Below, in pieces: positions 1,672 through 63,841 of a stretch of DNA of 64,000 nucleotides. Under the pieces are notes generated by a model. The model was given only the letters and a program-made list of their open reading frames with translations, was not told the origin of the DNA and searched no databases. The stretch spans positions 7,481,766 through 7,545,765 of the forward strand of contig NC_057718.1 of assembly GCF_004010195.1 (NCBI RefSeq). The letters are read 5' to 3'. The position numbers and the translations under genes are program-made. The stretch's first letter is position 1. Every line of letters begins with the position of its first letter. The DNA comes from Chiloscyllium plagiosum (lineage: Eukaryota).

Positions 1672-2085
1672 CAAGTTAAAAATCACACAACGCCAGGTTA
1701 TAGTCCAACAGATTTATTTGGAAACACTAACTTTCAGAGCGCCTTTCGTTCATCATGTGGATGTGGAGTATAAGATCGTAGGATACATAATTTAGAGCAA
1801 ACATTTACAGTGTGATGTAACAAATGATATATTGAAAAAGACTTGGATTGTTTGTTAAGAGAGACTTAACAAACAATCCAAGTGTTTTTCAATGTATCAT
1901 TTCGGTTACATTATACTGTAAACTTTTGCTGTAAATTCTGTACCCTGCGAGCTTATACTCCACAACCACCTGATGTAGGAAAGGCGCTCTGAAAGTTAGT
2001 GTTTCCAAATAAACCTGTTGGACTATAACCTGGCGTTGTGTGATTTTTAACTTTGTACACCCCAGTCCAACACTGGCACCTCCAA
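1672..2085. mobile_element. Penelope-derived fold-back insert, family B (two inverted arms of about 190 bp)
   Basis: 1673-1859 is the imperfect reverse complement of 1866-2052; 13-bp TSD atcatctcagctg at 1659-1671 and 2086-2098; decayed hammerhead core near 1970-2000. Confidence 0.85.
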
Positions 2086-2189
2086 ATCATCTCAGCTGAA
2101 GTAAGCCCGACAGTGTAACATGGGAATACTGTGTAGGGAAAGGGTCTGAAGTGCTATGGGGGTGGGGCAAGGAAGGCAAAGAACTCTTA

Positions 2190-2403
2190 AGGAGCATAAC
2201 TAATTCTTCTGTAACACAATGGTTACATTCTTGCGCAACCCCATATTATAGAAGAATTGCACTGTAGAAACAGTGTTTGAATTGTTGGTGCTGTAATCAT
2301 GTTACAGTCATCACACATAAAAGTTTGTGCTTTTGAAACAGTGTCAATTACATTCCAGTGAATTTGCATTGATGAAACATGCGTTAAGACAGAACAACCT
2401 GTA
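2190..2403. mobile_element. Possible decayed Tc1/mariner (Tigger-like) MITE
   Basis: Internal inverted blocks ttcttctgtaac / ttatagaagaa; right end cctgta. Family assignment is from recall only. Confidence 0.35.
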
Positions 2404-2474
2404 GACAGGTTCTTGATTAGTGAGGGGGGTAGGTATTACAGAGTGGAGGCTGGAGAACGGGGTTGAGAAATATG

Positions 2475-3038
2475 TTTGATGTGATATGATTTATTATTGT
2501 CATGTGTACCTAGATACAGTGAAAGGTTTTGATTTGCATGCAGTACAGGCAGATCATACCATACAAAGTGCATTAGGGTAATAGAACAGAGCGAGGAATA
2601 CAACGTTACAGCTGCAGAGAAGGTGCACAGAAAGCGAGATCAACATTAAGTTTAAAATTTGAGAGAGCCACTCAGAGGTCTGATAGCAGCAGGGTAAAAG
2701 CTGTTCTTGAATCGGTTGGTATGTGTGTTTAAGCGTTTGTATCTTCGGCCCAATGGAAGAGGTTGGAAGAGATTATAACCGGGGTGGGAGGGGTCTTTGA
2801 TGATGTTGGCTGTGTTCCCGAGGCTGTGGGAAGTGTGGATGGAGTCAATGGGTGGAAGGTTGACTTGTGTATTGCACTGGGCTGTGTTCACAGCTCTCTG
2901 TGGTTCTGGGCAGAGTATTTACCATATTGGGCTGTAATGCATCCAGATAGAATGCTTTCTATGGTCCATCTATAAAAATTGGTAAGAGATTTAATGGACA
3001 TGCTGAGTTTCCTTAGCCTTCTGAGGAAGTAGAGGCGG
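2475..3038 (-). mobile_element. Rex1/Babar-type LINE, 3' end
   Basis: ORF 2652..2891(-) IIKDPSHPGYNLFQPLPLGRRYK..TNRFKNSFYPAAIR is the typical Rex-Babar C-terminus; 3' UTR shared with 18445-18900. Confidence 0.8.
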
Positions 3039-4767
3039 TGGAGCAGATTTGATGGATCAAATGGGCTAATTCTGCTCCTTTATCTTATGGTGTTATGGTG
3101 TATCCTGGGCTCTGGCCCCATTGGGGATCAGACTGGACTAGTGGATGAAGGATTGGGTTCCGGGGAGGATGAGTTGGGTGAGGGATGTTTGAGGCAGTGG
3201 TTCAAGGGGGAGCATGTTTCCAACCCATCTGGATCTGGCATCTTTCGTGACTGGAGGTTAATCTCCAGCACATGCCAGATGAAAATGCCAAGGCTTTTGT
3301 AAGTAAATCCATGCCAACTTTAAAAAAATACACTTGTTTAATAGGAACACTTAGATTTTACACCAGTCAGGAGTAATTGGACAAAGCTGTGGCCTTTTCT
3401 CCAGAGAAGAATAGGTGGGTGAGGTACCCCGATAGAGGACTTTAAGGTTATAAAAGTGTTTGATGGGGAAGATATTTCCTTTATTGGAGGAAGGATCAAT
3501 GAGGGGAAGACAGAATTCAAACCACGGGCTACTGAGAGAAGGCAATCACTGATAAATCCGGTCGGGAATTCAGGAAAAACAATTTCACCCAGAGAGTGGT
3601 GAAAATGTCCAACTCACTACCAAGGAGTGGTTGAGGTGAATGTATTGATGCAGTTCAAGGGAGGCTACAGAAAGGAATAGAAGATTATAGTGTAATGGTT
3701 CAATGAATTTGTGACAGGGGCATAAACATTGATGTGAGCAATTCACATTAATGATAAAGCATTGACTTCTGAATATCTGAGACTATTGTGGACTGAAAAG
3801 CTAATAGAAAAGTAAAACGCTGACTTGTAAATTGGTGCAGTGATCACTTGGCCCCAGGTTGAGCCAGGCTTTGTGAAATCACCAATAAACATGATTCCAG
3901 TTTGGACTGAAATTAACATCCTTATCAAAAGAAGGCTGAAGCCAGCTAGACATGAAAAAGCCCATAACTCCTGTTTAATTTACACCTTTATGAGAAGTTC
4001 CCAAATTGGAGATAAAACATCATCGCTTATAGTTAGCCAGCTTGGAGACAATGAATCCAGATACAGGAATCACAAAAGGGCTACATTTCATGCAAATACT
4101 TCAGCAGCACTAGGGATATGAAGTTCTGACGAGAATTGGAGAAGGCATTCTCTTTCTCCCTCTCAGAAAGGATAAAGCAACCGGTGACTAAATAAATTTC
4201 AAAGGGCAAAGGTTAAGCATGTGATACTCAGGTCTAGAAATTAAGGAAAATGAAGGGTGACCTTATTGGAGCATATGAAGTTCTGGAGGGGCTTTACAAT
4301 GTAGATGTTGAGATAATGTTCCCCTCATGTGGGCATCTAGAACTAGACAGCACATTTTGGCAATAAGGAGTCTCCCAAAAAGATAAAGAAGCAGAGGAAT
4401 TTCTCAGAGAGTCTTTCGTGTTTGGAATTCTCTTTCTCAGACTTCAGTGAAGGTTGTGTTATTGATTATATTCAAGGTTGAGTTGGACAGTTTTAATTGA
4501 CAAGGAAGTTCAGGATTAATGTCAGACAGGCAGGCAAAAGGAGTTAAAGAACCAATCAGCAACTATCTTATTAAATGGTCTACGTCTGCTCCTATTTCTT
4601 ATGGTCGTTTGACAGACAGATAAAGATTAAGTTCTCCAACCAGACTGTCCCATGATGTTGTGACGTTTCGGGTATCATAGGACAGACATTGGGCATGTGA
4701 GTCTCCATTGGTAGTTCTCTCACCTCTTATTCTGAGGATTCAGGGCTCAAGTAACAGGGCTCAAATA

Positions 4768-5065
4768 ACTGCTGCCTCACAGCGCCAGAGACCCGGGTTC
4801 AATTCCCGCCTCAGGTGACTGACTGTGTGGAGTTTGCACATTCTCCCCGTGTCTGCATGGGTTTCCTCCGGGTGCTGCGGTTTCCTCCCACAGTCCAAAG
4901 ATGTGCAGGCCAGGTGAATTGGCCATGCTAAATTGCCCATTGTGTTAGGTGAAGGGGTAAATGAAGCGGTGTGGATAGGTTGCGCTTCGGCAGGTCGGTG
5001 TGAACTTGTTGGGCCGAAGGGTCTGTTTCCAAACTGTAAGTAATCTAATCTAATCTAATCTAATC
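4768..5065 (+). mobile_element. HE1-type SINE, slightly 5'-truncated, (TAATC)n tail
   Basis: actgctgcctcacagcgccagagacccgggttcaattccc head; gggccgaagggtctgtttcc; taatc repeats at 5041-5065. Confidence 0.92.
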
Positions 5066-5242
5066 TGGACAATATCCAAGGTTGGCTGAAAAGTGGCAAA
5101 TAACATTCACACCTCACAAATACCAGGCAATGACCATCTTCAGTAAGACACAATCTAATCACTGCCCCCTTGACAGTCAATGGTGTTACCATCACTGAAT
5201 CCCCCACCATCAGCATCCTGGGAGTTAGCATTGACTAGAATC

Positions 5243-5355
5243 CTGATGAAGCACTTCTGCCCAAAACATTGATTTTCCTGCTCCTCAGATGCTGCCTGAC
5301 CTGCTGTGCTTTTCCAGCACCACGCTCTCGACTCTAATCTCCACCATCTGCAGTC
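5243..5355 (+). mobile_element. Penelope-derived short insert, family A
   Basis: 8-bp TSD ctagaatc at 5235-5242 and 5356-5363; starts exactly at ctgatgaa; body gatgctgcctgacctgctgtgcttttccagcac. Confidence 0.85.
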
Positions 5356-5753
5356 CTAGAATCTCAACTAACACAGTGGCAGCAAGAGCAGTCAGTAGCT
5401 GGGAATACTGTGGTGAGTAAGTCACCCCCTGGTTCCCTGAAGTCTGTCCATCATCTACAAGTCTGGAATGTGATGGAATACTCCCCACTTGCCCTGGATG
5501 GGTGCAGTTCTGGCAACACTCAAGAAGCTCAACACCATCCAGGACAAAGCGGTCTGTTTGATTGGCACCACATCCACTCCCTCCACCATCATCGCTCAGT
5601 AGCAGCAGTGTGAACCACCTACAAGATGCATTGCAGAAATTCACTGAAGATGCTCAGACACGAACATCCAAACCCACAAACATTTTCATCTAGAAGGACA
5701 AAGGCAGCATCTACTTGGCAACACCACACCCTGCAAGTTCCTGTCCAAGCAAC

Positions 5754-9835: not shown

Positions 9836-9844
9836 TTATCATGG

Positions 9845-11465: not shown

Positions 11466-11779
11466 ATATCTGTGGTGCGAGGTCGGCAGTTGCTCAGAAT
11501 CAATAATCCCCCTTAATAGGCAACTCACTGTTGCTGAGCAAGAAACTCACCTCAACACCTGGCAGTTGTAAAAAAGATGCAATGAGTTATTCCCAACAAA
11601 TCGATAAACCTTGCTGAACATGGTTCTGGCATATTTCTTGTTATAATCCAAGTCATTCAAAGCCAAAACAAATTCCACTCTCCACAGATGCTGCCAGACA
11701 TTTCCAGCCTCTCTGTACTTTGGACACCAGCCCTTGAATGGCCTCGCTTAATTGAACCTTAGTTTCTTTATTCTTTGAC

Positions 11780-18179: not shown

Positions 18180-18278
18180 GCAAAATGAAAACAGAAATTG
18201 CTAGAAACACTCATCTGGTCTGGCAGCATCTGCGGAGAGAAATCAGAGTTAACGTTTCGGGTCCAGTGACTCTTCCCT
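18180..18278 (-). mobile_element. Penelope-derived short insert, family C (truncated within the hammerhead)
   Basis: Minus strand gagtcactggacccgaaacgttaactctgatttctctccgcagatgctgccagacc. Confidence 0.75.
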
Positions 18279-20089: not shown

Positions 20090-20221
20090 ATTCCTGATGA
20101 AGGGCTTTTGCCCGAAACACTAATTTTCCTGCTCCTTGGATGCTGCCTGACCTGCTTTGCTTTTCCAGCACCACTCCAATCTAGACTCTTGTTTCAAGCA
20201 TCTGCATTCATTGTTTTTACC
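20090..20221 (+). mobile_element. Penelope-derived short insert, family A
   Basis: 12-bp TSD tagttgtgcttt at 20078-20089 and 20222-20233; ctgatgaagggcttttgcccgaaa at 20094-20117. Confidence 0.88.
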
Positions 20222-21695: not shown

Positions 21696-22154
21696 TCATA
21701 GAGTCATAGAGATGTACATCATGGAAACAAACCTTTTGGTCCAACCTGTCCATGTCGACCAGATAGCCCAATCCAATCTAGTCCCACCTGCCAGCACCTG
21801 GCCCATATCCCACCAAACTCTTCCTATTCATATACCCATCCAAATGCCTCTTAAATACTGCAGTTGTACCAGCCTCCACCACATCCTCTGGCAGCTCATT
21901 CCATACACGTACCACCCTCTGTGTGAAAAAGTTGCCCCTTAGGTCTCTTTTATATCTTTCCCCTCTCACCCTAAACCTATGCCCTCTAGTTCTGGACTCC
22001 CCCACCCCAGGGAAAAGACGTTGTCTATTTATCCTATCCATGCCCCCCATAATATTGTAAACCTCTATAAGGTCACCCCTCAGCCTCCGACGCTCCAGTG
22101 AAAACAGCCCCAGCCTGTTCAGTCTCTCCCTAAAGCTCAAATCCTCCAACCCTG
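21696..22154 (-). mobile_element. Young CR1/HER1-type LINE 3' end
   Basis: ORF 21778..22149(-) 123 aa with intact CR1 C-terminus; tail gtcatagagtcatagag. Confidence 0.93.
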
Positions 22155-22344
22155 GTTTAAGTAAATAGGCAAAAAGTTGGCAAATGATGTATAATCCATA
22201 ATATTGTAAACCTCTATAAGGTCACCCCTCAGCCTCCGACGCTCCAGGGAAAACAGCCCCAGCCTGTTCAGTCTCTCCCTAAAGCTCAAATCCTCCAACC
22301 CTAGTTTAAGTAAATAGGCAAAAAGTTGGCAAATGATGTATAAT
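22047..22344. repeat. 149-bp tandem duplication
   Basis: 22047-22195 repeats at 22196-22344 with 2 mismatches seen. Confidence 0.92.
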
Positions 22345-22394
22345 GTGGGAAAAGCAAAGTTATTCATTTTAGCATGGAAAACAAAATATTATAG

Positions 22395-22528
22395 CTGAAA
22401 ATGTGTTGCTGGAAAAGCGCAGCAGGCCAGGCAGCATCCAAGGAACAGGAGAATCGACGTTTCGGGCATAAGCCCTTCTTCAGGAATGAGGAAAGTCCTC
22501 ATCTCCAGCATCTGCAGCCCTCACTTTC
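22395..22528 (-). mobile_element. Penelope-derived short insert, family A
   Basis: 16-bp TSD aaacaaaatattatag at 22379-22394 and 22529-22544. Confidence 0.9.
22456..22483 (-). ncRNA. Minimal type I hammerhead ribozyme motif (intact core, weak helix I)
   Basis: Minus strand CUGAAGA-A-GGGC-UUAU-GCCC-GAAA-CG-UC; catalytic activity not shown. Confidence 0.7.
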
Positions 22529-23071
22529 AAACAAAATATTATAGTCTATTTAAACAGAGAGAAACTGCAGAAAGCTGCAACAAAAAGAGACTTGGGGGAA
22601 CTTGTGCACAAAACACAGAAAGCTAGCACACAGGTATAGTAGCTAATGAGGAAGGCTTAGGGAATGGTGGAAATTATTTCAGAGAGTTGGTGTATAAGAA
22701 TTGGGAAGTCTTATTGCAACTGGACAAGGTGCTGGGGATACCACACCTGGAGTACCATGAGCAGTGTTGGGTCCCTTTGTTTAAGGGAAGACTTCATTTC
22801 ATTGGTGGCAGTTCAGAGAACATTCACAAGGCAGCTCGCTAGTATGGAAGAATTGCCTAAGAAGTGAAGGCTAAACTGGCTGGGATTCTACTGGCTGGAG
22901 TTTGGAAGAATGAGAGGTGACATCATTGAAACATATCAGATTCTTAAGGGGCTTGACAGGGTCAATGCTGAGAGGATGTTTCCCCTCATGGGAGACTCTA
23001 GGACTAGAGGGCACAGACTCAAAAAAAAGGGTCACCAATTTAAGACTGCGATGAGGATGAAGTTCTGAGAG

Positions 23072-24826
23072 TGACAGAGATGTACAGCACGGAAACAGAC
23101 CCTTCGGTCCAACCCGTCCATGCCGACCAGATATCCCAACCCAATCTAGTCCCACCTGCCAGCATCCGGCCCATATCCCTCCAAACCCTTCCTATTCATA
23201 TACCCATCCAGATGCCTTTTAAATGTTGCGATTGTACCCGCCTCCTCCACTTCCTCTGGCAGCTTATTCCATACACGTACCACTCACTGTGTGAAAAAGT
23301 TGCCCCTTAGGTCTCTTTTATATCTTTCCCTTCTCACCCTAAACCCTATGCCCTCTAGTTCTGGACTCCCCCACCCCGGGAAAATACTTTGTTTATTTAT
23401 CCTATCCATGCCCCTCATAATTTTGTAAACCTCTATAAGGTCACTCCTCAGCCTCCAGGGAAGACAGCCCCAGCCTGTTCAGCCTCTCCCTAAAGCTCAA
23501 ATCCTCCAACCATAGCAACATCCTTGTAAATCTTTTCTGAACCTTTTCAGGTTTCACAATATCTTTTTGATAGGAAGGAGACCAGAATTGCACGCAATAT
23601 CCCAACATTGGCCGAACCAATGTCCTGTACAGCCGCAACATGACCTCCCACCTCCTATACTTAATACTCTGACCAGTAAAGGAAAGTATACCAAACACCT
23701 TCTTCATTAACCTATCTACCTGTGATTCCACTTTCAAGGAGCTATGAACCTGCATTCCAAGGTCTCTTTGTTCAGCAACACTCCCTAGGACTTTACCAGT
23801 AAGTGTATAAGTTCTGCTAAGATTTGCTTTCCCAAAATGCAGCACCTCGCATTTATCTGAATTAAACTCCATCTGCCTGTTCTCAGGCCATTGGCCCATC
23901 TGATCAAGATCCTGTTGTAATCTGAAGTAATCCTCTTTGCTGTCCACTACACCTCCAATTTTGGTGTCATCTGCAAACTTACTAACTGTACCTCTTATGG
24001 TCGCATCCAAATCATTTACGTAAATGACGAAAGGTAGTGGTTTCAGCACTGATCCTTGTGGCACTTTCTTCAAAAAACTCAATCAAGTTTGTGAGACATG
24101 ATTCCCCATGCACAAAGCCATGTTGACTATCCCTAATCAGTCTTTGCCTTTCCAAATACATGTACATCCTGTTCCTCAGGATTCCCTCCAACAACTTGCC
24201 CACCACCGAGGTCAGGCTCACTGGTCTATAGTTCCCTAGCTTGTCCTTACCTCCCTTCTTAAACAGTGGCACCATGTTAGCCAACCTCCAGTCTTCTAGC
24301 ACCTCACCTGTGACTATTGATGATACAAATATCTGAGTCAGAGGCCCAGCAATCACTTCCCTAGCTTCCCACAGAGTTCTAGGGTACACCTGATCAGGTC
24401 CTGGGGATTTATCCACCTATATGTGTTTCAAGACATCCAGCACTTCTTCCTCTGTAATCTGGACATTTTGCAAGATGTCATCATCTATTTCCCTACAGTC
24501 TATATCTTCCATGTCCTTTTCCACAGTAAATACTAATGCAAAATATTCATTTAGTAACTCCCCCATTTTTTGTGGCTCCACACAAAGGCCGCCTTGCTGA
24601 TCTTTGAGGGGCCCTATTCTCTCCCTAGTTACCCTTTTGTCCTTAAGATATTTGTAAAAACCCTTTGGATTCCCCTTAACTCTATTTGCCAAATGTATCT
24701 CATGTCCCCTTTTTGCCCTCCTGATTTCTCTCTTAAGTAGACTCCTACTCTTCTAAGGATTCACTCGATCTATCCTGTCTATACTTGACATATGTTTCCT
24801 TCTTTTTCTTAACCAAACCCTCAATT
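23072..24826 (-). mobile_element. CR1/HER1-type LINE, about 1.75 kb of ORF2 (RT domain) with an internal deletion near 24062
   Basis: ORFs 24417..24692, 24012..24416 (KSPGPDQVYPR..NYRPVSLTSVVGK..QHGF) and 23441..24082 (VPQGSVL..KFADDTK). Confidence 0.95.
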
Positions 24827-26544: not shown

Positions 26545-27160
26545 TGGTCTGGTTATACTATTACTGGACTGTTAATCCAGCGACCCAGCCAATGTTCTGG
26601 AGACCCAGGGTTGAATCCCACCATGGCAGCTGGTAGTATTTGAATTCAATAAGAATCTGGAATTAAGAGTTGAATGATGATGACCATGAATCCATTAGGC
26701 TGTTGTCAGGAAAAACCCACCTGGTTCACTAATGACCTTTAGGGAAGGCAACTGTCATCCTTACCTGGTCTGGCCTACATGTGACTCCAGACCCACAGGA
26801 ATAAGAAACAAAAAAAAAACAAAGAACTGTGGAAGCTGTGATTCAGAAACAAGAACAGAAATTGCTGGAAAGACTCAGCAGATCTGGCAGCATCTGAGGA
26901 GAGAAATCAGAATTAATGCTTCAGGTTGAGTGACCCTTTTGCTGTGGGTCCGGGGCCATATGCAGTTCAGACCCTTCCAGAATCACTGGACCCAAAACAT
27001 TAACTCTGATTTCTCTCCACAGATGCTACCAGACCTGCTGAGTTTTTGCAACAATTTCTGTTTTTGCTTTCCACAGCAATATCATTGACTCTTAACTGCC
27101 TCTGGGATGGAAAATAAATGATGGCCTGGCTATTGACATCCTCATCCTGTGAATGAATAA
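26545..27160 (+). mobile_element. tRNA-headed SINE with L2-like 3' tail, interrupted at 26799-27070
   Basis: gggttgaatccc B box; 3' end gggatggaaaataaatg..catcctgtgaatgaat resembles the L2-like LINE end at 9085-9125. Confidence 0.8.
26799..27070. mobile_element. Penelope-derived fold-back insert, family C
   Basis: agaaattgctggaaagactcagcagatctggcagcatctg..gagaaatcag is inverted against ctgatttctctccacagatgctaccagacctgctgagt..aatttct; 6-bp direct repeat ccacag at 26793-26798 and 27071-27076. Confidence 0.8.
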
Positions 27161-27600: not shown

Positions 27601-28440
27601 CCAACTGTTTGACATCACCCATTATAAGTCATACAGGAACTCGATATAATCATCTAAATATAATATTGTTGATATGAAAATGTATGTCAACCAAATATTA
27701 TAAATACAAATAGAGCATATACATATATTTGATCCCTCTGATGCAAGTTTTATACTGGAGATCTTGGAGAAGATTAGTAGCTCAGGTTGTGGATCAGGTT
27801 GTCAGTTTTGCTCACGGAGCTGGTGGGTTTGTTTTCAGACGTTTCGTCACCACGCTAGGTAACATCATCGGTGAGCCTCTGGTGAAGCTTTGGTATTCTG
27901 TCCCGCTTGCTATTTGTGTGTCTAAAACAGGAAGACACAACATGCCTAGAGACTCTAGTCACCCTACCATACATCAAAGACATTTCAGAGATGACGACCA
28001 GAACCTCCAGCCCCTGGGCATCATGGTAGCTCACAAACCTACCATCACACTGAAACAGCTCCTGATGAATTTAAAGGACCCTGTACCCACAGCCAGCAGA
28101 ACAAACGTCATAAACAAAATACCCTCAAAGGACTGCAACAACCATTACATTGGACAAACTAGCAGGAAACTAGCCATCAGGATATATGAGCACCAACTAG
28201 CCACCAAAAGACTCTCACTGGTATCCATACACACAGAAAAGAGGGACACCAGTTCGACTGGGACAATACACCCACACTGGGACAGGCTAAACAAAGACAT
28301 GCACGGGAATTCCTCAAGGCCTGGCATTCAAACTGGAACTCTATTAACAAGCATATAGATTGGGATCCCATTTACCAACCCCTCAGAATCAGAATCGGAA
28401 ATGATATCTCCCACCACAACAGACCAAGACACATAAGTAG

Positions 28441-29045
28441 TAGTTGCTCCTGATGTAGTCTCCTCTACACTGGGGAGACTGGACGCTTCCTAGCAGAGCG
28501 CTTTAGGGAACATCTCCGGGATACCCGCACCAATCAACCCCACTGCCCTGTGGCCCAACATTTCAACTCCCCCTCCCACTCTGCCAAGGACATGGAGGTC
28601 CTGGGCCTCCTTCACTGCTGCTCCCTCATTACCCGACGCCTGTAGGAAGAACGCCTCATCTTCCGCCAAGGAACACTTCAACCCCAGGGCATCTATGTGG
28701 ACTTCAACAGTTTCCTTATTTCCCCTTCCCCCACTTCACCCCAGTTCCAAACTTCAAACTCAACACTGTCCCCATGACCTGTCCTACCTGCCTATCTTCC
28801 TTTCCACTTATCCACTCTACCCTCCTCCCTGACCTATCACCTTCATTTCCTCCCCCATTCACCAATTGTACTCTATGCTACTTTCTCCCCACCCCCACCC
28901 TCCACCCACTTCAGGCTCGCCGAAGGGCTTTTGCCTGAAACGTCGATTTTACTGCTCCTCGGATGCTGCCTGAACTGCTGTGCTCTTCCAACAGCACTAA
29001 TCCAGAATCTGGTTTCCAGCATCTGCAGTCATTGTTTTTACCTAC
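28441..29045 (+). mobile_element. Second Penelope-like element (Neptune-like) GIY-YIG C-terminus plus family A terminal repeat, nested in the first
   Basis: LLYTGETGRFLAERFREHL..PVAQHFNSPSHS..EERLIFRQGTLQPQGIYVDF with stops; 11-bp TSD cacataa(g/a)tag at 28430-28440 and 29046-29056. Confidence 0.87.
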
Positions 29046-29106
29046 CACATAAATAGCAAGCAAGACAGAACACCAACGCTTCAGCAGAGACTCACTGATG
29101 ATGTTA

Positions 29107-29309
29107 GGAGAAGGTGAGGACTGAAGATGCTGGAGGTCAGATCGAAAGTGTGGTGCTGGAAAAGGACAGGCAGCATCCGAGGAGCAGGAGAGTCAATGTT
29201 TTGGAGTGAGTCGGATTCCTGATGAAGGGCTTTTGCCTGAAATGTCAACTCTCCTGCTCCTCGGATGTTGCCTGACCTGCTGTGCTTTTCCAGCACCACA
29301 CTCTCATCT
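29107..29309. mobile_element. Penelope-derived fold-back insert, family A
   Basis: 12-bp TSD ctgatgatgtta at 29095-29106 and 29310-29321; ctgatgaagggcttttgcctgaaatgtc at 29219-29246. Confidence 0.9.
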
Positions 29310-29649
29310 CTGATGATGTTACCTAGCATGGTGACAAAATCTCTGCAAACCAACCCACCAGCTCAGTGAGCAAACTTTCCACAAGATTTTATGTATATAT
29401 AAAATATATTTTACTTGGATATAAAATTACAACATTCTGATATTTTACATAATCCAGGAATTATGTATATATCACCCACGTACAAAATCTCTTAGGTATA
29501 AAATACATGTTAATCAGGTACAAATTATATCCCTCAGGAATTGGGTATATTATCCAGATATAATGAAACATAAAATCATCTAGGTGTACATTTGCAGAAT
29601 TGCTAATGGCTCAGTTAATTTATTTGGACAAATAAACAGATCCTCCACC

Positions 29650-40371: not shown

Positions 40372-41335
40372 GAAAAGATTTACAAGGATTGACTGGAGGG
40401 TTTGAGCTCCAGGGAGAGGCTGAACAGTCTGGGGCTATTTTCCCTGTAGCGTCAGAGGCTGAGGGGTGACCTTATGGAGGTTTATAAAATCATAGTTAAA
40501 AATCACACAACACCAGGTTATAGTCCAACAGATTTATTTGGAAGCATTAGCTTTCAGAGCGCTGCTCCTCCATCATGTGGTTGTGATGAAGGAGCAGCAC
40601 TGCAAAAGCTAATGCTTCCAAATAAATCTGTTGGACTATAACCGGGTGTTGTGTGATTTTTAACTTTGTACACCAGAACCGTGGGCGACACGGTGGCACA
40701 GTGGTTAGCACTGCTGCCTCACAGCGCCAGAGACCCGGGTTCAATTCCTGCCTCAGGCGACTGACTGTGTGGAGTTTGCACGTTCTCCCTGTGTCTGCGT
40801 GGGTTTCCTCCGGGTGCTCCGGTTTCCTCCCACAATCCAAAGATGTGCAGGTCAGGTGAATTGGCCATGCTAAATTGCCCATAGTGTCAGATAAGGGGTA
40901 AATGTAGGGGAATGGGTGGGTTGCGCTTCGGCGGGGCGGTGTGGACTTGTTGGGCCGAAGGGCCTGTTTCCGTACTGTAAGTAATCTAAAAAAAAACCTC
41001 CAAATTATAAATAATGAGAGCATGGATAGGGTAAATAGAGAAGGCCTTTTTTCCTGGGTAGAGAGTTCAAAACTAGACGGCAGAGGTTCAAGAAAAGATG
41101 GGAAAGATTTAAAAGGGACCTGAGGGGTAACTTTTTTACCCAGAGGGTTATGCATGTGCTGAATGGACTGCTAGAGGAAGTGTTGGAGGCTGATACAATT
41201 ACAACATTTAAAAGGCATCTGGATGGATACATGAGTAGGAAGGGTTTAGAGGGATATGGGTGAAATGCTGGCAAATGGGACTAGATCAACTTAGATGAGT
41301 TGGACCGAAGGGTCTTTTTCTGTGCGGTATAACTC
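40372..41335 (+). mobile_element. CR1 3' end carrying a family B Penelope-derived fold-back (about 40494-41007), itself interrupted by an HE1 SINE (about 40683-40990)
   Basis: CR1 ggtgaccttatggaggtttataaaatcat resumes at atgagagcatggataggg; family B tail gtacacc..ctccaaat is split by the SINE. Confidence 0.88.
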
Positions 41336-43589: not shown

Positions 43590-43727
43590 AAAAACAATGA
43601 CTGCAGATGCTGGAAACCAGATTCTGGATTAGTGGTGCTGGAAAAGCACAGCAGTTCAGGCAGCACTACTGCTCTTCGGATGCTGCCTGAACTGCTGTGC
43701 ATTTTCCAGCACCACTAATCCAGAATT
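43590..43727. mobile_element. Penelope-derived fold-back insert, family A (hammerhead part missing)
   Basis: 12-bp TSD gtacttccaggt at 43578-43589 and 43728-43739; ttctggattagtggtgctggaaaagcacagcagttcaggcagca occurs inverted. Confidence 0.88.
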
Positions 43728-45709
43728 GTACTTCCAGGTGCAGATGTTCCCATACAAAAGCCGAACCTACTTCCAAATGATATCATTTTCTGAGACTCAT
43801 TGCGTAGCAGTCAAAACTAGGAATATCAAGTACTTTCATCTTTCTCACTACTCTCCCCTTCTTCCTACCAACTCTTGGCCACTCCTGTCTCAGATAAACT
43901 CAGCAAGAGACTGGGAACTGAACCGAGTTTCCTATGGGTCTGTTTGCCTTTGTATCACACCCTCAGTCAATCTAAAAGCAGTTGGCCCATTAGTACTGTT
44001 CCAGGTGCACAGCCAATGGCAATAAATTGAAAGAGTTTTTTTTAGCATGCTATTTCATTTTGTTAAGTAATAGCAGCTTACACTTTCCATAATACCTTTA
44101 ATATAAGGCACGTTTATTCGCCTCCAGCCCTAGAGATGGAGAGAAAAGGGTGAATCATTGCAGGAATGGCCCATTGAGAGAAACTCCTCTTTGCCACCTA
44201 AATTCTGGGTCACCAGCAGTTAAGGCCCTTAATGTATAGCCACTTAAGCTCCTCAATTTGCTACTTTTCTGATCACAGGAGTGGGTTAGGTTCCTGACTG
44301 GGAACCAATGGTGTCCTACCTGCTGGGTTGGTGGAATTGGGGAGGCGGGGGAGGGGTTTCAATTGCCCTAATTTGTGGTCAATTGGAAGCATGAATGGTC
44401 AGCAAATAGGTGACCCCTAAAATCCACCCTAACCGGCCTTTCCTCCGATACCGCACTCCCATCTCAGCAGAAGCCTCACCTCGCTGCTGGATTGTTCCCT
44501 ACCCACAACCCTTTCTCCAAGGATTGGCAGACTTTAGTATCTAGAAGCTGGAAGCTGGGTGATTGGAAGTTTCTGGTAAAGCCAGGGGATCAGCAAGTAC
44601 TTGTCCTCACTGACCTGTCATCCCTTTGTGAGATTGATAAGCTCTTTATGAAGACGATTGCTGGTATTTCATCTTGCTATTTTTTTGGGGGGGGAGGGGA
44701 GAGGGTCTGGTGGAATGGATCTCTTAGCTGGCACCTAATGCACTCGACCCCCTACAAACATTAGCAAACAAGTTTGGAAAACTGTGCCCACGGTAAAATG
44801 GTCCAAGTTGCATCACAGGAGTGTAAATAAGATGCAATTTGACATTACATTTTCTAAAATAAATATTAGGAGAGAAGAACTAAAGCATCCCTCAGTATCA
44901 TTAAGATGCTCCTGAAAGCATAACCTCTTTGGGTAAGCTTTTGGTCACCTGTCCTAATATTACCTGGCTCAATGACAAATTTCATTTCTGAAATAAGACA
45001 ACCATGAAGTGCAGTGAAAGGGACGCCTAGATGCAAGTTGTTGTTGCAAGCTGCCTTAGCTTTACATTACTCGAGCTGTTTAGCTATTTCCTGTGCTGCA
45101 GTCAAGCGTTTTACAGTCTGCTTTATTCCATTTCACACTTACATGCCTGTGTGTGTTTTCCTTCCAACTTCATTCCCCTGGTTCTGTTATAAAAACAGAA
45201 AATGATGGAAATACTCAACAGGCCAGGAAGCATCTGTGGAGACAGAAACAGAGTTAGCTTTCCAGGTCATTGATTCTCGCTCAGTTTATTTTTCCCCTTA
45301 AGTGCTGTTTGTCTGTGTCTTCAGTGGATTCCAATGAAGTGCCTCTATCTGAAATGTAGGCCTGCCTGCTCTTTCTGGATGTGTTGCCTGGTACAGTGAA
45401 TGTTTGCAGCATTAATCTGTGTTATTTCTGTTGACTGTTTTCTCCCTGGGAGTTTTATCAATGCAAGTGCAGGTGGGGAAGTAACATTATGAGAGGTGAG
45501 CTGGATTTCACCGGGGGCTACATGCTGTATGTGTGCTCCACAATGCCTTAATGTGCCAGTGATGAAAGGTCCTGCAGAGCTTCAGTTCCGAACATATTAT
45601 ATTTAAACTAATATCAGTGAATATTCCCGATGACTCACAGTATGTATGGGTCAAGCTTTTCGGGAAGATTAAATTTGCCTTGAATTTAAACAAATGCAGA
45701 CAAGCGCTG

Positions 45710-46209: not shown

Positions 46210-46432
46210 TAAAAACCAAAGAGCTGAGGATGCAGGAAATCAGAAATAAAAACTGAAATTGCTGGAAAAACTCAGCAGGTCTGGCAGCGCCTGTGGAGAG
46301 AAATCAGAGTAAACGTTTCTGGCCCAGATAACCTTTCTGAGGAAGGATCACTGAACCTGAAACGCTCACTCTGATCTTTCTCTCCAGATGCTGCCAGACC
46401 TACTGAGTTATTCCAGCAATTTCGGTTTTTGT
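46210..46432. mobile_element. Penelope-derived fold-back insert, family C
   Basis: gaaattgctggaaaaactcagcaggtctggcagc inverted against gctgccagacctactgagttattccagcaatttc; ctgaggaaggatcactgaacctgaaacgctc at 46337-46367. Confidence 0.82.
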
Positions 46433-46646
46433 TGAAGGTTAGTGCATGTTGCACACTGTCAAAATGGAGAAAGAAAGCAATTGTATTAATCTTCGAACCC
46501 GATATGACCTTGGGAAGTTCTCATATAATTCATAGCTGCTGAAGCGTCCACTCACTATTAGAGGGTAAGGTAGATACATAGCTACTTACAGCATGACAGC
46601 ACAGGAACAGGCCCTTTGGCCCACTATGTCTGTGCTGACCATGATA

Positions 46647-46836
46647 CTAGGAGAAAGTGGTTACTGCAGATGCTGGAGATCAGAGTCAAGACTAGAGTGG
46701 TGCTGGAAAAGCACAGCAGGTCAGGCAGCATCCGAGGAGCAGGAAAATTGACTTCGGATAGGAGCCCTTCATCAGGATTTTCCTGCTCCTTGGTTGCTGC
46801 CTGACCTGCTGTGCTTTTCCAGCACCACTCCAGTCT
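46647..46836. mobile_element. Penelope-derived fold-back insert, family A
   Basis: 11-bp TSD tgaccatgata at 46636-46646 and 46837-46847; decayed minus-strand core cctgatgaagggctcctatccgaag. Confidence 0.88.
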
Positions 46837-47191: not shown

Positions 47192-47308
47192 CCAGGAGAA
47201 AGTGAGGACTGCAGATGCTGGAGCTCAGAGTCGAGAGTGTAGTGCTGGAAAAGCACAGCAGGTCAGGCTGCCTGACCTGCTGTGCTTTTCCAGCACTACA
47301 CTCTCGAA
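47192..47308. mobile_element. Penelope-derived fold-back insert, family A (hammerhead part missing)
   Basis: 11-bp TSD tatggtctctt at 47181-47191 and 47309-47319; tcgagagtgtagtgctggaaaagcacagcaggtcagg occurs perfectly inverted. Confidence 0.9.
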
Positions 47309-54835: not shown

Positions 54836-55172
54836 GGTGGCAGAGTGGCAATGTGATTGGACTAGTAATCCAGGGGCCCAGTTTAATGTTCTGGGGATAT
54901 TGGTCCAAATCCCATCATGGTAGATGGAGGAATTTGAATTCAACAAATAAATCAGGGTCATAAAGCTAGTCTCAATAATGGAGACCAGAATGACTATTGT
55001 TGAAAAAAACCCATCAAGTTCACTAATATCCTTCAAATCTGCCTTCTTTTGCCTTGTCTGGCCTGCATGTAACTCCTGATGCTGCCTGGCTTGCTGTGTT
55101 CTTCCAGCCTCCTGCTTGTCTACATGTAACTCCAGGCCCACAGCAATGTGGTCAATTCTTAACTGCCCTCTA
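54836..55172 (+). mobile_element. tRNA-headed SINE (26545 family) with a 46-bp Penelope-derived insert at 55077-55122
   Basis: 11-bp TSD catgtaactcc at 55066-55076 and 55123-55133; insert gatgctgcctggcttgctgtgttcttccagc resembles family A. Confidence 0.8.
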
Positions 55173-58041: not shown

Positions 58042-58200
58042 ATTTGGAGATGCCGGTGCTGGACTGGGTTGACAAAGTTTAAAAATTGCACAACACCAGG
58101 TTATAGCCAACAGGTTTAATTGGAAGCACTAGCTTTCGGAGCGCTGCTCCTTCACCAGGTGGTTGGACTATAACCTGGTGTTGTGTGATTTTTAACTTTG
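58042..58200. mobile_element. Penelope-derived fold-back insert, family B
   Basis: 13-bp TSD tacaattgtcaac at 58029-58041 and 58201-58213; minus-strand core cctggtgaaggagcagcgctccgaaagcta (one core substitution). Confidence 0.88.
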
Positions 58201-58329
58201 TACAATTGTCAACTGCAGCATTTTGTGTTGGTGTTCAAAGGAGCTATACCACAAGTATATTTCCTCTTTCAACCTCTGCAAGTATCTAAACTATGTGCAA
58301 TTATATTATCCAAAGTTGTCTGAGGAATC

Positions 58330-58600: not shown

Positions 58601-59369
58601 CAGGAGTTATGGAGCTAAAATTTCTGGTCTGCCAGGCAGAATTTTGCACTGCGTTAACTCAACTGTTTTGTTTGTTTTTTTTTTCAAAATCGTTGCATAG
58701 CATGCTAGGTTCTTCCTGATTGAAACTTTGGGTGTGTCTTGGTGAAAGTTTTTTTGTTTTAGCGCAATGAGATGCTAGTGGTTACAGATATGTTACTAGT
58801 TGTGGTAGATACGGGTGTGAGGGAGAAGACTGGAATTTGAGGTGATAAATTAAGTTCAACACAATATTGAAACACTGATTCTCTTCACATGCCCAACCCT
58901 TGCCCAACACTCCATCCCCAATGTCTCAATGGATTAGGAAATCCTACAAATGCCCGCTGATATAACCCCATGCATTGGCATTACTAAAGCAGTTTTATCT
59001 GCGCTGTATTAAAACACTGAGGCCTCATTTCAAGTTCTCCTCTGTTTCTCTCTCAACCAAAACCACACTGTTACAACCTAATGGACTCTGCTTTCTGTTT
59101 TGGCTTTCTTGAAAGAAATACCCCGTTTTGATGCCCACATCTGGGTTAAAAGTGCACAGAGTTTTCCATCGCCTTGTCCCCTCGAATTGTGAACTTATCC
59201 CACCCTTACCTTCTTTTGGTAGGTGCCTGCCTCTTTACCTGGGAATGTGCTCTTCCAGCTTTTCTGTTGCAGCGATGGGCAAGTGCAAACATATTGCCAT
59301 ATTTAATTTGTACTGATTCTGTGCTGTCATTTTGGCACTTTACCTGCTCTGGCCTTTAGTTTGAGACAA

Positions 59370-59570
59370 CTTGGAGAACTGCAGATACTGGAGAGTCCGA
59401 GACGATGAAAAGTGGTGCTGGACAAAGCACCACAGGTCAGGTGGCATCCGAGGAGCAGGGGAGTCAACGTCTCGGGTCGGAGGACTGAGGGAGGGAAAGG
59501 GGGCTGAGAAATAAATAGAGGGAGGGGAGTGAGGCTGGAGGAAAGGGGTGTTTGCAGGTGGGAGGTGAAA
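59370..59570 (-). mobile_element. Penelope (family A-related) 3' fragment
   Basis: ctgcagatactggaga..gtggtgctggacaaagcac..aggtcaggtggcatccgaggagcagggg agtcaacgt, followed by a purine-rich tract complementary to the type seen at 28720-28910. Confidence 0.7.
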
Positions 59571-59784
59571 GAGCATTCTAGAATAAATACTTAGCAGACC
59601 AGAGAATGTCAATCCAGAAGTCACTTTGGCAATTTAAGAAACCTGACTATGAACACTTCAACTCAATACCAACAAACAAGATCCCAACAGATTCACTAAT
59701 GCTCTTTTCCACTCTTTCCTGATCTGACCAATGTGTGACTGTAGCCTTTTCTCTGAAGTGGCATTTGATGAGCACGTTACTTAT

Positions 59785-59925
59785 CGGGGGACATAAATTT
59801 AAGGTGAAGGGTGGAAGGTATAGGGGAGATGTCAGGGGTGGGTTCTTTACCCAGAGAGTGGTGGGGGCATGGAATGCGCTGCCCGTGGGAGTGGTAGAGT
59901 CGGAATCATTGGCGACCTTTAAGCG
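59785..59925 (+). mobile_element. CR1 C-terminal fragment
   Basis: GGHKFKVKGGRYRGDVRGGFFTQRVVGAWNALP..LATFKR. Confidence 0.85.
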
Positions 59926-62542
59926 GCGTGACCAACAGACCAATGTGAGTAACCCCCAATTTGAGACCTATGCCCCCCCCCCCCCTCCTTTACACCTGGA
60001 ACAATTGACCAGAGAAGTCTGGTCATTGCTAACTGCAACAACGTGTCTGGCTCGTGAGTGAGGCGGTTTGCTCGAAAGATTCTGCAACAAACTCTCATAT
60101 TTGGATTCACAAGACCAGCTTTTTAATGAAGGTGGGAAATGGATTCTTAACTAGAATAGTTTTTTCTTAAATAAAACCCAACGATTTGTGAAGGTGACAG
60201 TTTGGTAAGGAGTACCATTCTGAACTTCTCTGGACGATTAACACTTTTGTTTACAGTGTTTGTCTCTTTGTTTCTGTGCTAACCGCATTTAATGTGGAGT
60301 CTGCACTTTAACGACAACACTGTAATGAGCCAGTGGGGCTTGGTTTAAAGGTGACTTTGGTCACCAAGATGAGAATCGTTCTCTGTTTGACCCCTGTACA
60401 CTGAAAGAGAAATATCTCCACATACTTTACAGGGGTGATTATCAAACAGTTTATACAGTGTTCCCTCTTGGGGATGCTGGAATATTTCAGGGAAAGTTTG
60501 TTGAAGGAGGGTACATTTTACAGAGTATTCTAACGGTAGACCATGAGATAGCCAGAGGGATTTCGGAAGGCAATTCTAAAGGTTTAGGCCCAGGTAGCTG
60601 AAGGCAGGGCCATCAATGATTGAAAGATTAAAATCCGGGTTTAGTGAGCATTATAACATTCACAAGTGTTCACCTTAAGTGATGTACAAAATGTCATGGC
60701 ACCTTGATCCTTCGTTAGTCCTTTTGCTATGGTGTACCATCAATAAAGAATGATTTTGAAGCTCTCTCAAAGAGCTAGCACAGGCACAATGGAATGAATG
60801 GCCTCATTCTGTGCCACCTCATCCTGTGAGTACAAGGTGCAGTCAAGCCACTCTGTTAATTTTCTTTTTAAACACGACATGTTACATGAGTCCGTGCTGC
60901 ACTTCAGCATTTCTTGGGAAAAAGACCCATTTGTCAATGTCGGTGTCTTTTATTCAACAAGGCAATTGACAAGATAAAGGTTTGTATGGAGTGAATGGAT
61001 TAGTTGGCAAATGGACTCTATTTGCACAAGTTAATGATGACTGACAGTTTACATTTTTAACCAAATCAGGTTGGAACTCATTTAGTCAAGGCATTGTCTT
61101 GAGAAATGGACTGGAGAAGGGTGTCACTTATTCTGTTCAGTTGAGTTAAAACAAGTAAGTGTTCAAAGATCAGGACTCTGTGTTATGTATGCAGCTTCCA
61201 GTATGTTGCACACTGTGTGGTCTGTCTAGCAGTCTGAAGTTGTCGGTGTAATTCTTTGCACCCCCAGAATTCTGTAACTTTGACAAAATGTCATTTTTCA
61301 GCAATACTCAAGTAGATATTCTTTGTGAAAGAGACACTGAATCTGCTACCACCTTACCAGGGCTAACGACGGCTTGCAGCTGGGACTGCTGTGAACCCTT
61401 GGAGGTGCAAAGCAGAAATGTTCTCCATTATGAATCGGCCTGCGCTGACCCAGCTGGGGTGGGGGGGGCACATGGATCTGAATCTGGACCTTCTGGCTCA
61501 GGGGGAACACCAACCAATTGTGGCACAAGACCCCCAAACATTTCACTTTACATAACAACTTTCACAATGTCAAGAGGTGGAGTACCACAGCCAGTGCAGT
61601 ACTGTTTTCAGAGTGTTGCCATGTAGCAAATTAATTCACCAATCTGCACACAGCAAACTTCTAGAAAACGCAGTGACGTCCTGGTTTATTTTATTGCTGT
61701 TTGTGGGCGCTCTCTGTGCACACATTGGCTGCCATGTTTCCTAGACTACAGATGCCTGCATTTAAAAAGGCCTTCATTGCCTGTAAAGCATCAGCAGCTG
61801 TGAATGGTGATATATAAATGCAGGTCTGTCGGTGAGACATTTGTGCTGAGTGGCAAAAAACTGTTGACAGATCAGTTATCCCCGTTGACAATTTTCGGGG
61901 GGGGTTTAATTGTAATTGAGCAGATCTTTGCCACTGACGTTGCAGCCACTGACGTTGCAATCCGTGAATGTTATAATTGAGAAGGGAATTGTCAATCTAA
62001 TTTTAAAACAAGCTGACAGAAAATCAACAGCTGGAAGGTCGTGTTTTCTCCAGCGCAGTTTTAGTGACACGACGAAGCCCAGTGCAAATGGATGAAGTGT
62101 CCTTGCAGGGAATGTGGTTACACAGTCCAGTCAATTATCTGGTGAAGTAATAGCTGCGTAGTGAGAGCATGTAGTGTTTTTTAATGGAGATGGAGACCAC
62201 AGCTAATGGCAGCACTGAGAGGTTGAAGCATTATAATCCATAAGTGCACTTGTTCTTGACAGAGCTACCGTTCTGATCTCTTGAATTGTTTCCAGGATTC
62301 TGAATTATCTGGAAACCCCTGTGCAACTGTAAGAGGGGACAGCACATTAGGAGGCTATTCAGCCCATCTCACCCATGCCAGCCCTTGTGCATTGGTTCCA
62401 TTGCGCTGACATTTCCCTGTTGTCCTCCTAAGTGTTTCCCTTCGATTACCTCTCTGATTCCCGTCAGAAAGAGATGATTAGCTCACCTTCCACAATCCTA
62501 CAGCCAATTCATTACAGTTCATAGCAACTTCTTGAAGAGGAA

Positions 62543-62690
62543 ATGGCACGGTGGCTCAGTGGTTGGTACTGCTGCCTCACAGCGCCAGGGATCCAGGTTT
62601 GATTCCAGCCTCCGGTGACTCCCTGTGTGGAGTTTATGCATTCTCTCTGTATCTTCGTGGGCTTTCTCCAGGTGCTCCAGTTTCCTCCTT
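62543..62690 (+). mobile_element. HE1-type SINE, 5' half
   Basis: ggcacggtggctcagtggttggtactgctgcctcacagcgccagggatccaggtttgattcc. Confidence 0.85.
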
Positions 62691-63642
62691 GTTGTGTAGT
62701 CCAATGTACCAATAAATGTTGCTGATGTGACTCTGACATTAATAAGAGTGGATGAGAGAAGCCACTAGACGAGGAGAAGACCCTGTGCTGGGAGCTGTAA
62801 GAGTTACTTCTGATGTGTAGATGTCAATGAGAATTTTACATCGTTGTAGAGCAAGAGTGGAAGAGCTTAACTCAAGTATAAGGAGCCAATGGCTTTGTAG
62901 AGTGGATGTCACAGAGTCATATCCAACTTGCCCACTCTGCTTAGTTTTCACAATCAATCTAGTCCCATTTGCCTGCATTTGGTCCTTGTCCCATCCATGT
63001 ACCTGTCTAAATGTTTCTTAAATGTTAAAATTGTACTGACTTCCGCCACTACATCTGGCAGCCGTTCCAGAGACTCCACCCTCTGTGGGAAACAATTGCC
63101 CCTCTGGGCTCGTTTATATCTCTCCCTTTCTCCTTAAATGTATGTATAGAGACCCACAGCCCAGGGACCATTACAAATAATATAATTATGTCAGTAGCCC
63201 CATTAATTACAGTCCAGCTGATGGTAAAACTGGACAAATCTGACTCCAGAATGAAAGCTGGCTTGATAATAACCTGTTTAATTTTCGCAATTAGTTATCA
63301 TGGTTGGTTAGTCACTGAAACTTACACATATGCAGCTGCAGATGTTCTCTAACAATAGAACATAAGCTTATTACATAAAGTTAGAAATTTTGAAAAAGCC
63401 TAACCTATATATATGTTAAAAGACCGTTTGAATTTAATACAGGCATCAAAACAAAGCTTCAACCTGTTTCCCAGCAGCATGTTTTATAGTGACTCAGTCC
63501 CAGAATAATATCAGTCCTCTCTCAGCTTTGTAAGTCTTTATATCAGTCATGCCTTGAACCGAAGAGTCTTCCTCTCCGAGTCCATTAGCTTGAAGTTCTT
63601 TCAATTCTGATAGCCTAAACTTTCTCTGTTCTAACAACTCCA

Positions 63643-63841
63643 AAGTTAAGAATCACACAATGCCAGGATATAGTCCAACAGGTTTATTTGGAAGCTCTAG
63701 CTTTCGGAGCGCCGCTCCTTCATCAGGAGCAGTGCTTCGAAAGCTAGTGGTTCAAAATAAACCTATTGGACTATAACTTGACGCTGTGTGATTTTTTAAC
63801 TTTGTACACCCCAGTCCAACACCAGCATCTCCAAATCATGA
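63643..63841. mobile_element. Penelope-derived fold-back insert, family B
   Basis: 12-bp TSD ctaa(c/a)aactcca at 63631-63642 and 63842-63853; aaagttaagaatcacaca..tagtccaa is inverted against ttggacta..tgtgtgattttttaacttt. Confidence 0.88.
63694..63730 (-). ncRNA. Minimal type I hammerhead ribozyme motif, complete (helix I 4 bp, helix II 5 bp, palindromic helix III)
   Basis: Minus strand GCUC-CUGAUGA-A-GGAGC-GGC-GCUCC-GAAA-GC-UA-GAGC; catalytic activity not shown. Confidence 0.75.

Follow-up and report, generated by a model that had tools for sequence, protein, structure and literature searches.

We analysed a 64,000-nt stretch of the genome of the shark Chiloscyllium plagiosum (contig NC_057718.1 of RefSeq assembly GCF_004010195.1, positions 7,481,766 to 7,545,765; hereafter the window), which holds 1,343 N in four runs, for short inserts that carry minimal hammerhead ribozyme motifs and that very probably derive from Penelope-like elements (PLEs). 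Inserts were catalogued by BLAST over the window using one natural reference for each of four families (A to D), yielding 34 arms, which were grouped by adjacency and orientation into about 21 insertion events, a density of about one insertion per 3 kb. The arms cover 2,767 bases; counting the family D insertion in full raises this to 3,833, which is 6.1% of the non-N window. The hammerhead region is reached by 20 of the 34 arms, and the remaining 14 are cut off 3' of it. The inserts follow a common plan. Module X has its start a little upstream of the hammerhead and stops at a constant 3' position, and a tail, Y, stands at one end; the tail measures 36 nt in family A, 34 nt in family B and 24 nt or more in family C. 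Many of them are hairpins, with the motif region present on both strands.

Two descriptors were used to locate motifs. The strict one demands CUGANGA, no more than one extra nt, a helix II with 4 bp or more, GAAA, a Watson-Crick (palindromic) dinucleotide and UH, and the relaxed one omits the helix III/UH demand. The strict descriptor retrieved 2 window sites, with C3 at 22483 (-) and 63726 (-), which are the only fully intact motifs, and the relaxed descriptor retrieved 5, compared with means of 0.005 and 0.13 and a maximum of 1 each in 200 shuffled windows (obtained by first-order resampling, not by an exact dinucleotide shuffle). The other 18 of the 20 arms that reach the region fail the strict descriptor, mostly through at least one box change, some through being cut short. 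Where decayed copies differ from their family pattern, the changes are mostly CG-to-TG or CG-to-CA, as in GCCCGAAACGUC, which reads GCCUGAAAUGUC at 29215 and GCCCAAAACAUU at 5241, a pattern to be expected of copies that are old, methylated and dead. Almost every copy in the window is a dead relic that has been truncated or has decayed at CpG sites. A preliminary description of this stretch had reported about 20 hammerhead-bearing inserts, at one per 3 kb, in four families sharing only the layout of the motif. All the sites that it named are present, on the strands that it gave, and its number and density agree with the catalogue. The boxes and their layout are likewise found, at a frequency far above that in the shuffled windows, but most motifs are decayed or truncated and only 2 are intact. 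The layout is indeed common to all four families, but families A and C also have the 3' part of X in common and similar tails, and are therefore not independent of each other.

The young family A insertion (22393..22528, both strands) consists of module X in inverted orientation (22393-22497, -) followed by the tail in forward orientation (22498-22528, +) within a 16-nt target duplication. It holds a fully intact hammerhead (22456-22483, -; CUGAAGA-A-GGGC-UUAU-GCCC-GAAA-CG-UC), with C3 at 22483 and a predicted cut between 22456 and 22455. A 149-bp unit present twice at 98% identity (22047-22344) ends 49 bp ahead of this insertion. Two older family A-like inserts are solo arms with a tail: the first (5241..5357, +) retains CUGAUGA and has decayed GAAA and helix III (CAAAACAUU), and the second (20090..20209, +; C3 at 20094), flanked by a 12-nt target duplication, still has its core boxes unchanged, GGGC/GCCC in helix II and a helix III decayed to ACAC. 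Family A-like hairpins are found at 43599..43715 (both strands; truncated 3' of the hammerhead and without motif, 12-nt target duplication, microRNA (miRNA)-like score), at 46650..46828 (both strands; tail on the - arm, 11-nt target duplication, decayed hammerhead, + arm beginning at the position directly after the predicted cut site) and at 47195..47295 (both strands; truncated, with a tail and an 11-nt target duplication, without the hammerhead region). The BLAST catalogue further holds a family A-like arm truncated inside the hammerhead (59374..59476, -), a 27-nt family A tail fragment without the hammerhead region (885..911, -) and a 31-nt fragment of the A/C-type 3' region (55078..55108, +).

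All four family B inserts are hairpins with arms on both strands. At 63641..63838, the - arm (63641-63726) carries the second fully intact hammerhead (CUGAUGA-A-GGAGC-GGC-GCUCC-GAAA-GC-UA; C3 at 63726, predicted cut between 63698 and 63697) and the + arm with the tail lies at 63725-63838. The insert at 58042..58204 has its tail on the - arm, a 13-nt target duplication and a core change at 58158 (-; CUGGUGA), and that at 40491..40674 (arms 40491-40575, -, and 40584-40674, +) has decayed core boxes. At 1673..2089, an inverted arm (1673-1755, -) and a forward arm with tail (1970-2089, +) lie within a 13-nt direct repeat, and both hammerhead boxes are decayed (AUGAUGA, CUGAUGU). The arms are separated by about 214 nt of unrelated DNA (1756-1969) with an AT-rich near-perfect hairpin (1815-1913), which perhaps entered the middle of the family B unit at a later time. 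Family C had been pieced together in the preliminary description from decayed or truncated copies. In the window, an arm at 18188..18276 (-) lacks the CUGANGA box and retains GAGUC..GACCC-GAAA-CG-UU (GACCCGAAACGUU); the + arm (46335-46434, motif at 46337) of a hairpin at 46242..46434 (both strands) retains CUGAGGA and GAAA, with helix II weakened (GGAUC/GAACC) and helix III decayed (ACGC). The other family C inserts are a hairpin with a decayed hammerhead (26845..27066; arms 26845-26938, -, and 26983-27066, +), an arm truncated 3' of the hammerhead (45191..45256, -) and a 22-nt fragment (11678..11699, +), the last two from the BLAST catalogue.

Family D is present as one insertion (27759-29375), in which an inverted arm and tail (27759..27923, -; hammerhead at 27838-27871) are followed by a forward arm without tail (27925..29375, +). 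Its two motifs had been listed as separate sites (27838-27871, -, and 29310, +); both are there, but as the two arms of a single insertion. The first reads CCGAUGA-U-GUUACC-UAGCGU-GGUGAC-GAAA-CG-UC, with U4 changed to C, and in the second G12 is changed to A and helix III is decayed. The forward arm contains remnants of an open reading frame's (ORF's) GIY-YIG endonuclease portion (27898-28621), is 81% identical to a family D genome copy over 529 aligned columns, and matches the shark reverse transcriptase-endonuclease (RT-EN) protein P0005 (tblastn, E-value 2.8e-54). It is broken twice. The inserted DNA at 28442-29046 includes an older family A-like arm with tail (28922..29030, +) that has lost the CUGANGA box and retains GGGC/GCCU-GAAA-CG-UC. 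An older family A-like hairpin (29107..29314, both strands; arm and tail 29107-29204, -, and arm 29215-29314, +) sits in the family D hammerhead box itself, and its 12-nt target duplication, CTGATGATGTTA, is family D's own sequence. The + arm of this hairpin reads CUGAUGA-A-GGGC-UUUU-GCCU-GAAA-UG-UC, with C3 at 29219 and CpG decay.

The layout common to families A to D is CUGANGA, one nucleotide, helix II, GAAA, a palindromic ACGU or AGCU, and H. The extra unpaired nucleotide, between A9 and G10.1, is present in every strict match in the window and loci, in all four families, and is A in families A, B and C and U in family D. Helix II (5'/3' strand) reads GGGC/GCCC in A, GGAGC/GCUCC in B, GGGUC/GACCC in C and GUUACC/GGUGAC in D. 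The helix III palindrome with H17 is ACGU-C in A and D, ACGU-U in C and AGCU-A in B, so that the 4-nt palindrome of the preliminary description is seen in every family. The same description had helix II differing among families yet paired. We collected every CUGANGA-N-(11..23)-GAAA in the window and 92 loci with no pairing demanded, yielding 135 occurrences, and counted pairs by anchoring on the boxes; a MAFFT alignment of 16 motifs misregistered family B by one column. The four outer helix II pairs are all standard in 94 of the 135 occurrences, in agreement with that claim, and 85.9% of helix II cells are paired, compared with 62.2 +/- 1.6% (maximum 67.2%) after dealing out the 3' partners at random. 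At pair 10.1-11.1, 82 occurrences have G-C and 26 have G-U, and pair 10.4-11.4 takes four Watson-Crick forms (C-G 59, G-C 26, U-A 17, A-U 8).

In the minimum-free-energy fold of a solo family A unit, helix II forms and the hammerhead junction does not, and the energy is ordinary (z = -0.20). The family B unit 63641-63838 folds as a single long hairpin (-101 kcal/mol, z = -11.95) with the CUGAUGA box in the apical loop and the helix II strands paired with the other arm. Since the motif is locked in a long stem, hairpin copies are unlikely to act as ribozymes alone. That these motifs would self-cleave, as a dimer through the palindrome, is an inference from the literature on minimal hammerheads, where the dimer idea is in print (PMC4209133; also in the relevant part of the review PMC6765202).

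For insertion anatomy we compared 82 copies of families A, B and C from the genome; rows that duplicated the window or another locus had been removed beforehand. A frequent arrangement is inverted X, forward X and Y, and no locus of the 82 has a tail at both ends. The 29 family A loci comprise 14 hairpins with a one-end tail, 6 single arms with a tail and a remainder of other forms; the 29 family B loci are all hairpins (24 with a one-end tail and 5 without tail), as are the 24 family C loci (5 with a one-end tail and 19 without). Tails are likely to have been missed in family C because the reference tail is only 24 nt long and identity is 75-83%. Most units measure only 100-250 bp. The junction between the two arms differs from copy to copy, so the hairpins must have arisen repeatedly. 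Of 17 window events, 8 lie between direct repeats that are 11-16 nt long, compared with 34 of 2000 random places examined by the same procedure, and target duplications range in length from 7 to 16 nt across the window and loci. As described in the relevant passages of Craig et al. (2021; PMC8557442), the signature of PLEs is strong 5' truncation, with an inverted 5'-truncated copy joined at its 5' end and a tail of 30-40 bp, often at one end only. The anole PLE protein, in the part of PMC11167929 concerned with its activity, cuts the two DNA strands and extends them, and it initiates reverse transcription internally at two sites that are one tail length apart. PLEs also tend to insert into older copies, according to the section of PMC6765202 on this point. 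The Penelope origin put forward in the preliminary description is supported by the inverted arm, the one-sided tail and the target duplications and, for family D, by endonuclease-coding remnants.

Family D is linked to an RT/GIY-YIG reading frame. Eight family D genome copies have at least 250 nt upstream of the motif in common, and in one of them (L100, with the adjoining L093) the translation some 370 nt upstream of the motif is ..IRYKIPCKDCNK / NYIEQTGKKLAIRIHEHQLATKRHD.. and includes the endonuclease-like stretch YKIPCKDCNK..YIEQTGKKLAIRIHEHQ. After frameshifts, this frame ends ..HQRLTDDVT*, the CUGAUGA box being read as L-T-D-D and a TAG stop lying in loop II; about three quarters of the 100 exact family D genome matches listed keep TAG or TAA in loop II (hand count). 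Of 19 candidate proteins, the endonuclease-like stretch matched 7 at an E-value of at most 0.001, every one of them from a carpet shark (Stegostoma tigrinum, Chiloscyllium punctatum and Hemiscyllium ocellatum). The best match, 80% identical over 54 aa of its C-terminal part, carries Pfam RVT_1 (E-value 1.8e-8), and another homologue has a weak Pfam GIY-YIG match (E-value 0.0027, below cut-off); the decayed endonuclease fragment itself is not recognised by Pfam. An ORF with RT and C-terminal GIY-YIG, as in endonuclease-bearing PLEs, was found for family D only. A Pfam search of 56 open frames from the window and loci returned RVT_1 and endonuclease matches of long interspersed element (LINE) type and no GIY-YIG at an E-value of at most 0.001. 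An open frame in the window (23444-24082, -; RVT_1, E-value 5.6e-10) is probably a LINE remnant unrelated to the Penelope inserts.

Protein P0005, annotated as uncharacterized in Stegostoma tigrinum, ends ..ALHRRLADDVTKNGDETSEN.., which is the translation straight through a D-type hammerhead; parts of these elements have therefore been annotated as host proteins. Two other proteins matched by the endonuclease-like stretch are named after host genes (a MAP3K7 isoform; CUE domain-containing protein 2), pointing to pieces of the element that were exonised or mis-joined.

Genome-wide abundance was estimated from exact pattern matches over the 3.56-Gb assembly (101,977 contigs), summed over both strands, using the same pattern reversed as a control. 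The A-type pattern gave 88,166 matches, the B-type 17,348, the D-type 1,009 and the C-type 379, together 106,902 exact matches, with 0 matches for every control. A generic pattern (CTGANGA-N{11,22}-GAAASSTH) gave 227,174 matches compared with 7,123 for its control, which bears out the major repeat class announced in the preliminary description. By hand count, the first 100 generic matches listed comprise about 77 A-type, 13 B-type, 8 D-type and 1 C-type motifs and 1 that is unclear. The 208,231 bases flanking the fetched copies contain 18 strict matches, all of A, B or C type, and 12 of these lie beside family A copies, which fits nesting.

As to how such inserts would arise, we consider it very probable that they are products of PLE retrotransposition. 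Each insert would be a copy of the 3'-terminal RNA module of a PLE lineage, consisting of a minimal type I hammerhead and about 57-78 nt up to the start of reverse transcription, sometimes with a tail of 24-36 nt. Both cut DNA ends would be used as primers at insertion, and such two-primer insertion would often leave an inverted copy head-to-head with the forward copy and a target-site duplication outside both. The hammerhead would be relevant only in the RNA of the source elements, not in dead copies, and the four source lineages would keep the catalytic boxes, the extra nucleotide, a helix II closed by G-C and a 4-nt palindrome for helix III.

Several observations weigh against this reading. 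No copy of family A, B or C was seen joined to an RT/EN reading frame. An all-against-all BLAST of the 82 loci found no common sequence upstream of the units besides other repeats, and no RT/EN remnant turned up immediately upstream of family A units when shark RT-EN proteins were used in tblastn; the case for a Penelope origin of these three families is made by the tail and inverted arm, by the target duplications and by the motif. The helix II sample is dominated by copies of few lineages, so that the effective number of independent comparisons is about 4. Helix I is short, with 2 contiguous core pairs in A, typically 3 in B (GUG/CAC) and 4 in D (UGAG/CUCA), by inspection. The Rfam search by which the preliminary description would have had the motifs recognised went against it: no hammerhead family was returned at the gathering threshold or among the 18 window matches at an E-value of at most 10, nor among the 7 matches (E-value of at most 10) on the 136-nt copy searched alone. 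Rfam hammerhead models (for example Hammerhead_1) expect a helix III hairpin and a longer helix I. The window motifs have the same catalytic boxes and helix II position as those families without a score match, and we take this miss to reflect the absent helix III hairpin and short helix I. The Rfam search did return sub-threshold miRNA-like matches at 46708-46815 (mir-2756; 50.5 bits, gathering threshold 61) and at 43634-43713 (mir-558; 36.7 bits, gathering threshold 90), which are due to family A-like hairpin insertions. Such hairpins could be mistaken for, or evolve into, small-RNA genes.

The remaining adverse observations concern the 5' end of young family A. Its genome copies are 97-99% identical to the window copy, so the family has been recently active. 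Among 16,783 exact copies that reach position 2 of X, only 29 continue with the upstream sequence of L011, L015 and L027, three of the genome loci; this sequence was considered as the body of the element and dropped on that count. Position 1 of X lies 14 nt upstream of C3. In 28 family A loci with 45 arms, 28 arms reach position 1, 15 start at positions 2-13 and 2 start at positions 54 and 57. Such a sharp end argues against random 5' truncation of a long element, and the copied RNA seems to begin at position 1, or reverse transcription to stop there. Not one of the 45 arms begins at the predicted cut site, and the copied RNAs were therefore not cleaved there. In the same vein, the portion of PMC11167929 that deals with cleavage describes it as dispensable for insertion in vitro in the anole, with no RNA ends at the cut site.

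These ends support a different account, which we regard as possible without favouring it. The short families, chiefly young family A, would be full-length non-autonomous units of about 139 nt, resembling short interspersed elements (SINEs), with their own transcript start 14 nt upstream of the core and copied in trans by the Penelope RT. Besides the sharp end and the high identity of the copies, the absence of a common upstream sequence in the 28 loci fits this account, as do three solo copies (L007, L013 and L023) in which the target duplication stands directly against position 1, and family B arms, which in the copies read extend only about 10-12 nt upstream of C3. However, the analysis identified neither a promoter nor a source copy nor a transcript start, a genome search that keeps the top matches of a short query favours short units, and a strong RT stop or template-switch hot spot would give the same sharp end. 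The SINE-like account also refines the Penelope reading and does not exclude it. Going one step further, it is conceivable, if rather doubtful, that young family A constitutes a discrete unit of some 139 nt that was active recently (14 nt, the minimal hammerhead, 61 nt to the start of reverse transcription and the 36-nt tail), the smallest RNA that a Penelope RT copies, with its own start and tens of thousands of copies. Its motif may then serve for something other than template cutting, for example recognition or folding for the enzyme, given that copies never begin at the cut site.

The distribution of the family A unit and the sequences beside it yielded further observations. In contig runs of uncertain kind from three organisms, 2,318, 5,682 and 1,406 contigs contain the family A unit (22385-22537) at an identity of at least 95% and lack its flanks, so that young family A is shared by several related taxa or labels. 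One raw-read RNA run yielded 0 reads for this region, which bears on neither expression nor cleavage. Some family A units adjoin GA-rich sequence (..GGGTAAGATAAAAGGTAGGGAGGAGGGAC..; L018:1400-1520 and L011/L015 at about 1150-1500), which forms a short tandem repeat or inverted pairs and accompanies only the 29 of 16,783 units mentioned above. An RT fragment (..FLRYIDDSIGAASCSHEEVEQFIHFTNTFHPDIK) lies beside a family A unit at L012:1325-1498. With 25,703 first-look genome candidates and 150 scored copies that are 91-100% identical, this fragment belongs to an RT family that is both young and highly abundant. Near its copies, two 'open frames' (1,230 and 695 aa) are inflated in length, as they contain runs of N.

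It is far less probable that the inserts are non-LTR (long terminal repeat) retrozymes, that is, tandem hammerhead units spreading through self-cleaved circular small RNAs. In the relevant part of bioRxiv 10.64898/2026.07.22.740005, retrozymes are short, non-coding, hammerhead-bearing relatives of the pseudo-LTRs (pLTRs) of PLEs, and tandem ones occur in one cartilaginous fish, so that they resemble our units in size and content. However, Tandem Repeats Finder gave 11 rows for the window, without any array of these units, which are dispersed and stand alone or as inverted pairs; the motif is minimal and without a helix III hairpin; and the absence of family A arms beginning at the cut site is the opposite of what is expected of a linearised circle or monomer. 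That the inserts are miniature inverted-repeat transposable elements (MITEs), with hammerhead-like boxes arising by chance from their palindromic shape, is hardly credible: many are near-perfect hairpins with flanking direct repeats, some with sub-threshold miRNA-like Rfam scores, but the hairpins are asymmetric with a tail at one end only, the arm junction varies and solo forward arms exist, target duplications vary over 7-16 nt, family D runs into an RT/EN reading frame, and the same catalytic layout recurs in unrelated sequence families for which the reversed controls give 0.

On the reading of the inserts as products of PLE retrotransposition, about 6% of the window and a very large genome-wide class of short repeats would be assigned to one mechanism, in which hairpin-shaped units could easily pass for MITEs, SINEs or precursors of miRNAs. 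With one core in four lineages, the inserts form a large natural data set on the role of the hammerhead in Penelope elements, and a young lineage whose 5' end is sharp and of which no copy ends at the cut site bears on whether these motifs cleave in vivo.

Comparison with known systems places the shark motifs among the minimal hammerhead ribozymes (min-HHRs) of metazoan PLEs (Cervera and De la Peña, 2014; PMC4209133). These are of type I, without a helix III hairpin, with CUGANGA and GAAA, a nucleotide lying between residues 9 and 10.1, a G10.1-C11.1 pair and a palindromic 15.2-16.2; several families with compensatory changes occur per genome, and most are single, in truncated copies, with opposite-strand pairs 100-700 bp apart. 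The window motifs agree with them in all the listed features of layout. Cartilaginous fishes are absent from the main text and supplement file 2 of that paper. A literature search combining Penelope-like, hammerhead and shark retrieved no shark hammerheads ('shark' there denoting a motif shape), and the literature on Penelope and Chiloscyllium has no hammerhead content in the text examined. An expansion of PLEs in the whale shark is reported in the pertinent section of bioRxiv 10.1101/443036. The inverted 5'-truncated copy, the one-sided tail and the C-terminal GIY-YIG all match the PLE unit as set out in the parts of PMC8557442 and PMC11167929 cited here, and family A units sit inside family D in the window, in line with the PLE habit of inserting in or beside older copies. 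The shark units differ from the canonical PLE unit in being mostly 100-250 bp long, in the single sharp 5' end of young family A, and in that no partial-tandem pLTR, a typical PLE feature, was seen in the window. Family D departs from the PLEs of PMC4209133 in that its stop codon lies in loop II, and whereas the ORF of PAc of Anolis begins at hammerhead stem II (in the passage of PMC11167929 describing it), the family D ORF ends in loop II. Retrozymes form arrays of units placed head to tail and have fuller type I hammerheads, in contrast to the dispersed or inverted shark units with their minimal motif. Earlier publications already describe the motif, its connection with PLEs, the idea of dimers and the anatomy of the insertions, and the inserts are not a new kind of element or ribozyme. 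In a comparison that is rough, as the descriptors differ, the 227,174 generic matches in the shark stand far above the roughly 4,000 motifs in coelacanth and 9,000 in Xenopus (PMC4209133), and it is mainly for this very high copy number that the shark families are remarkable.

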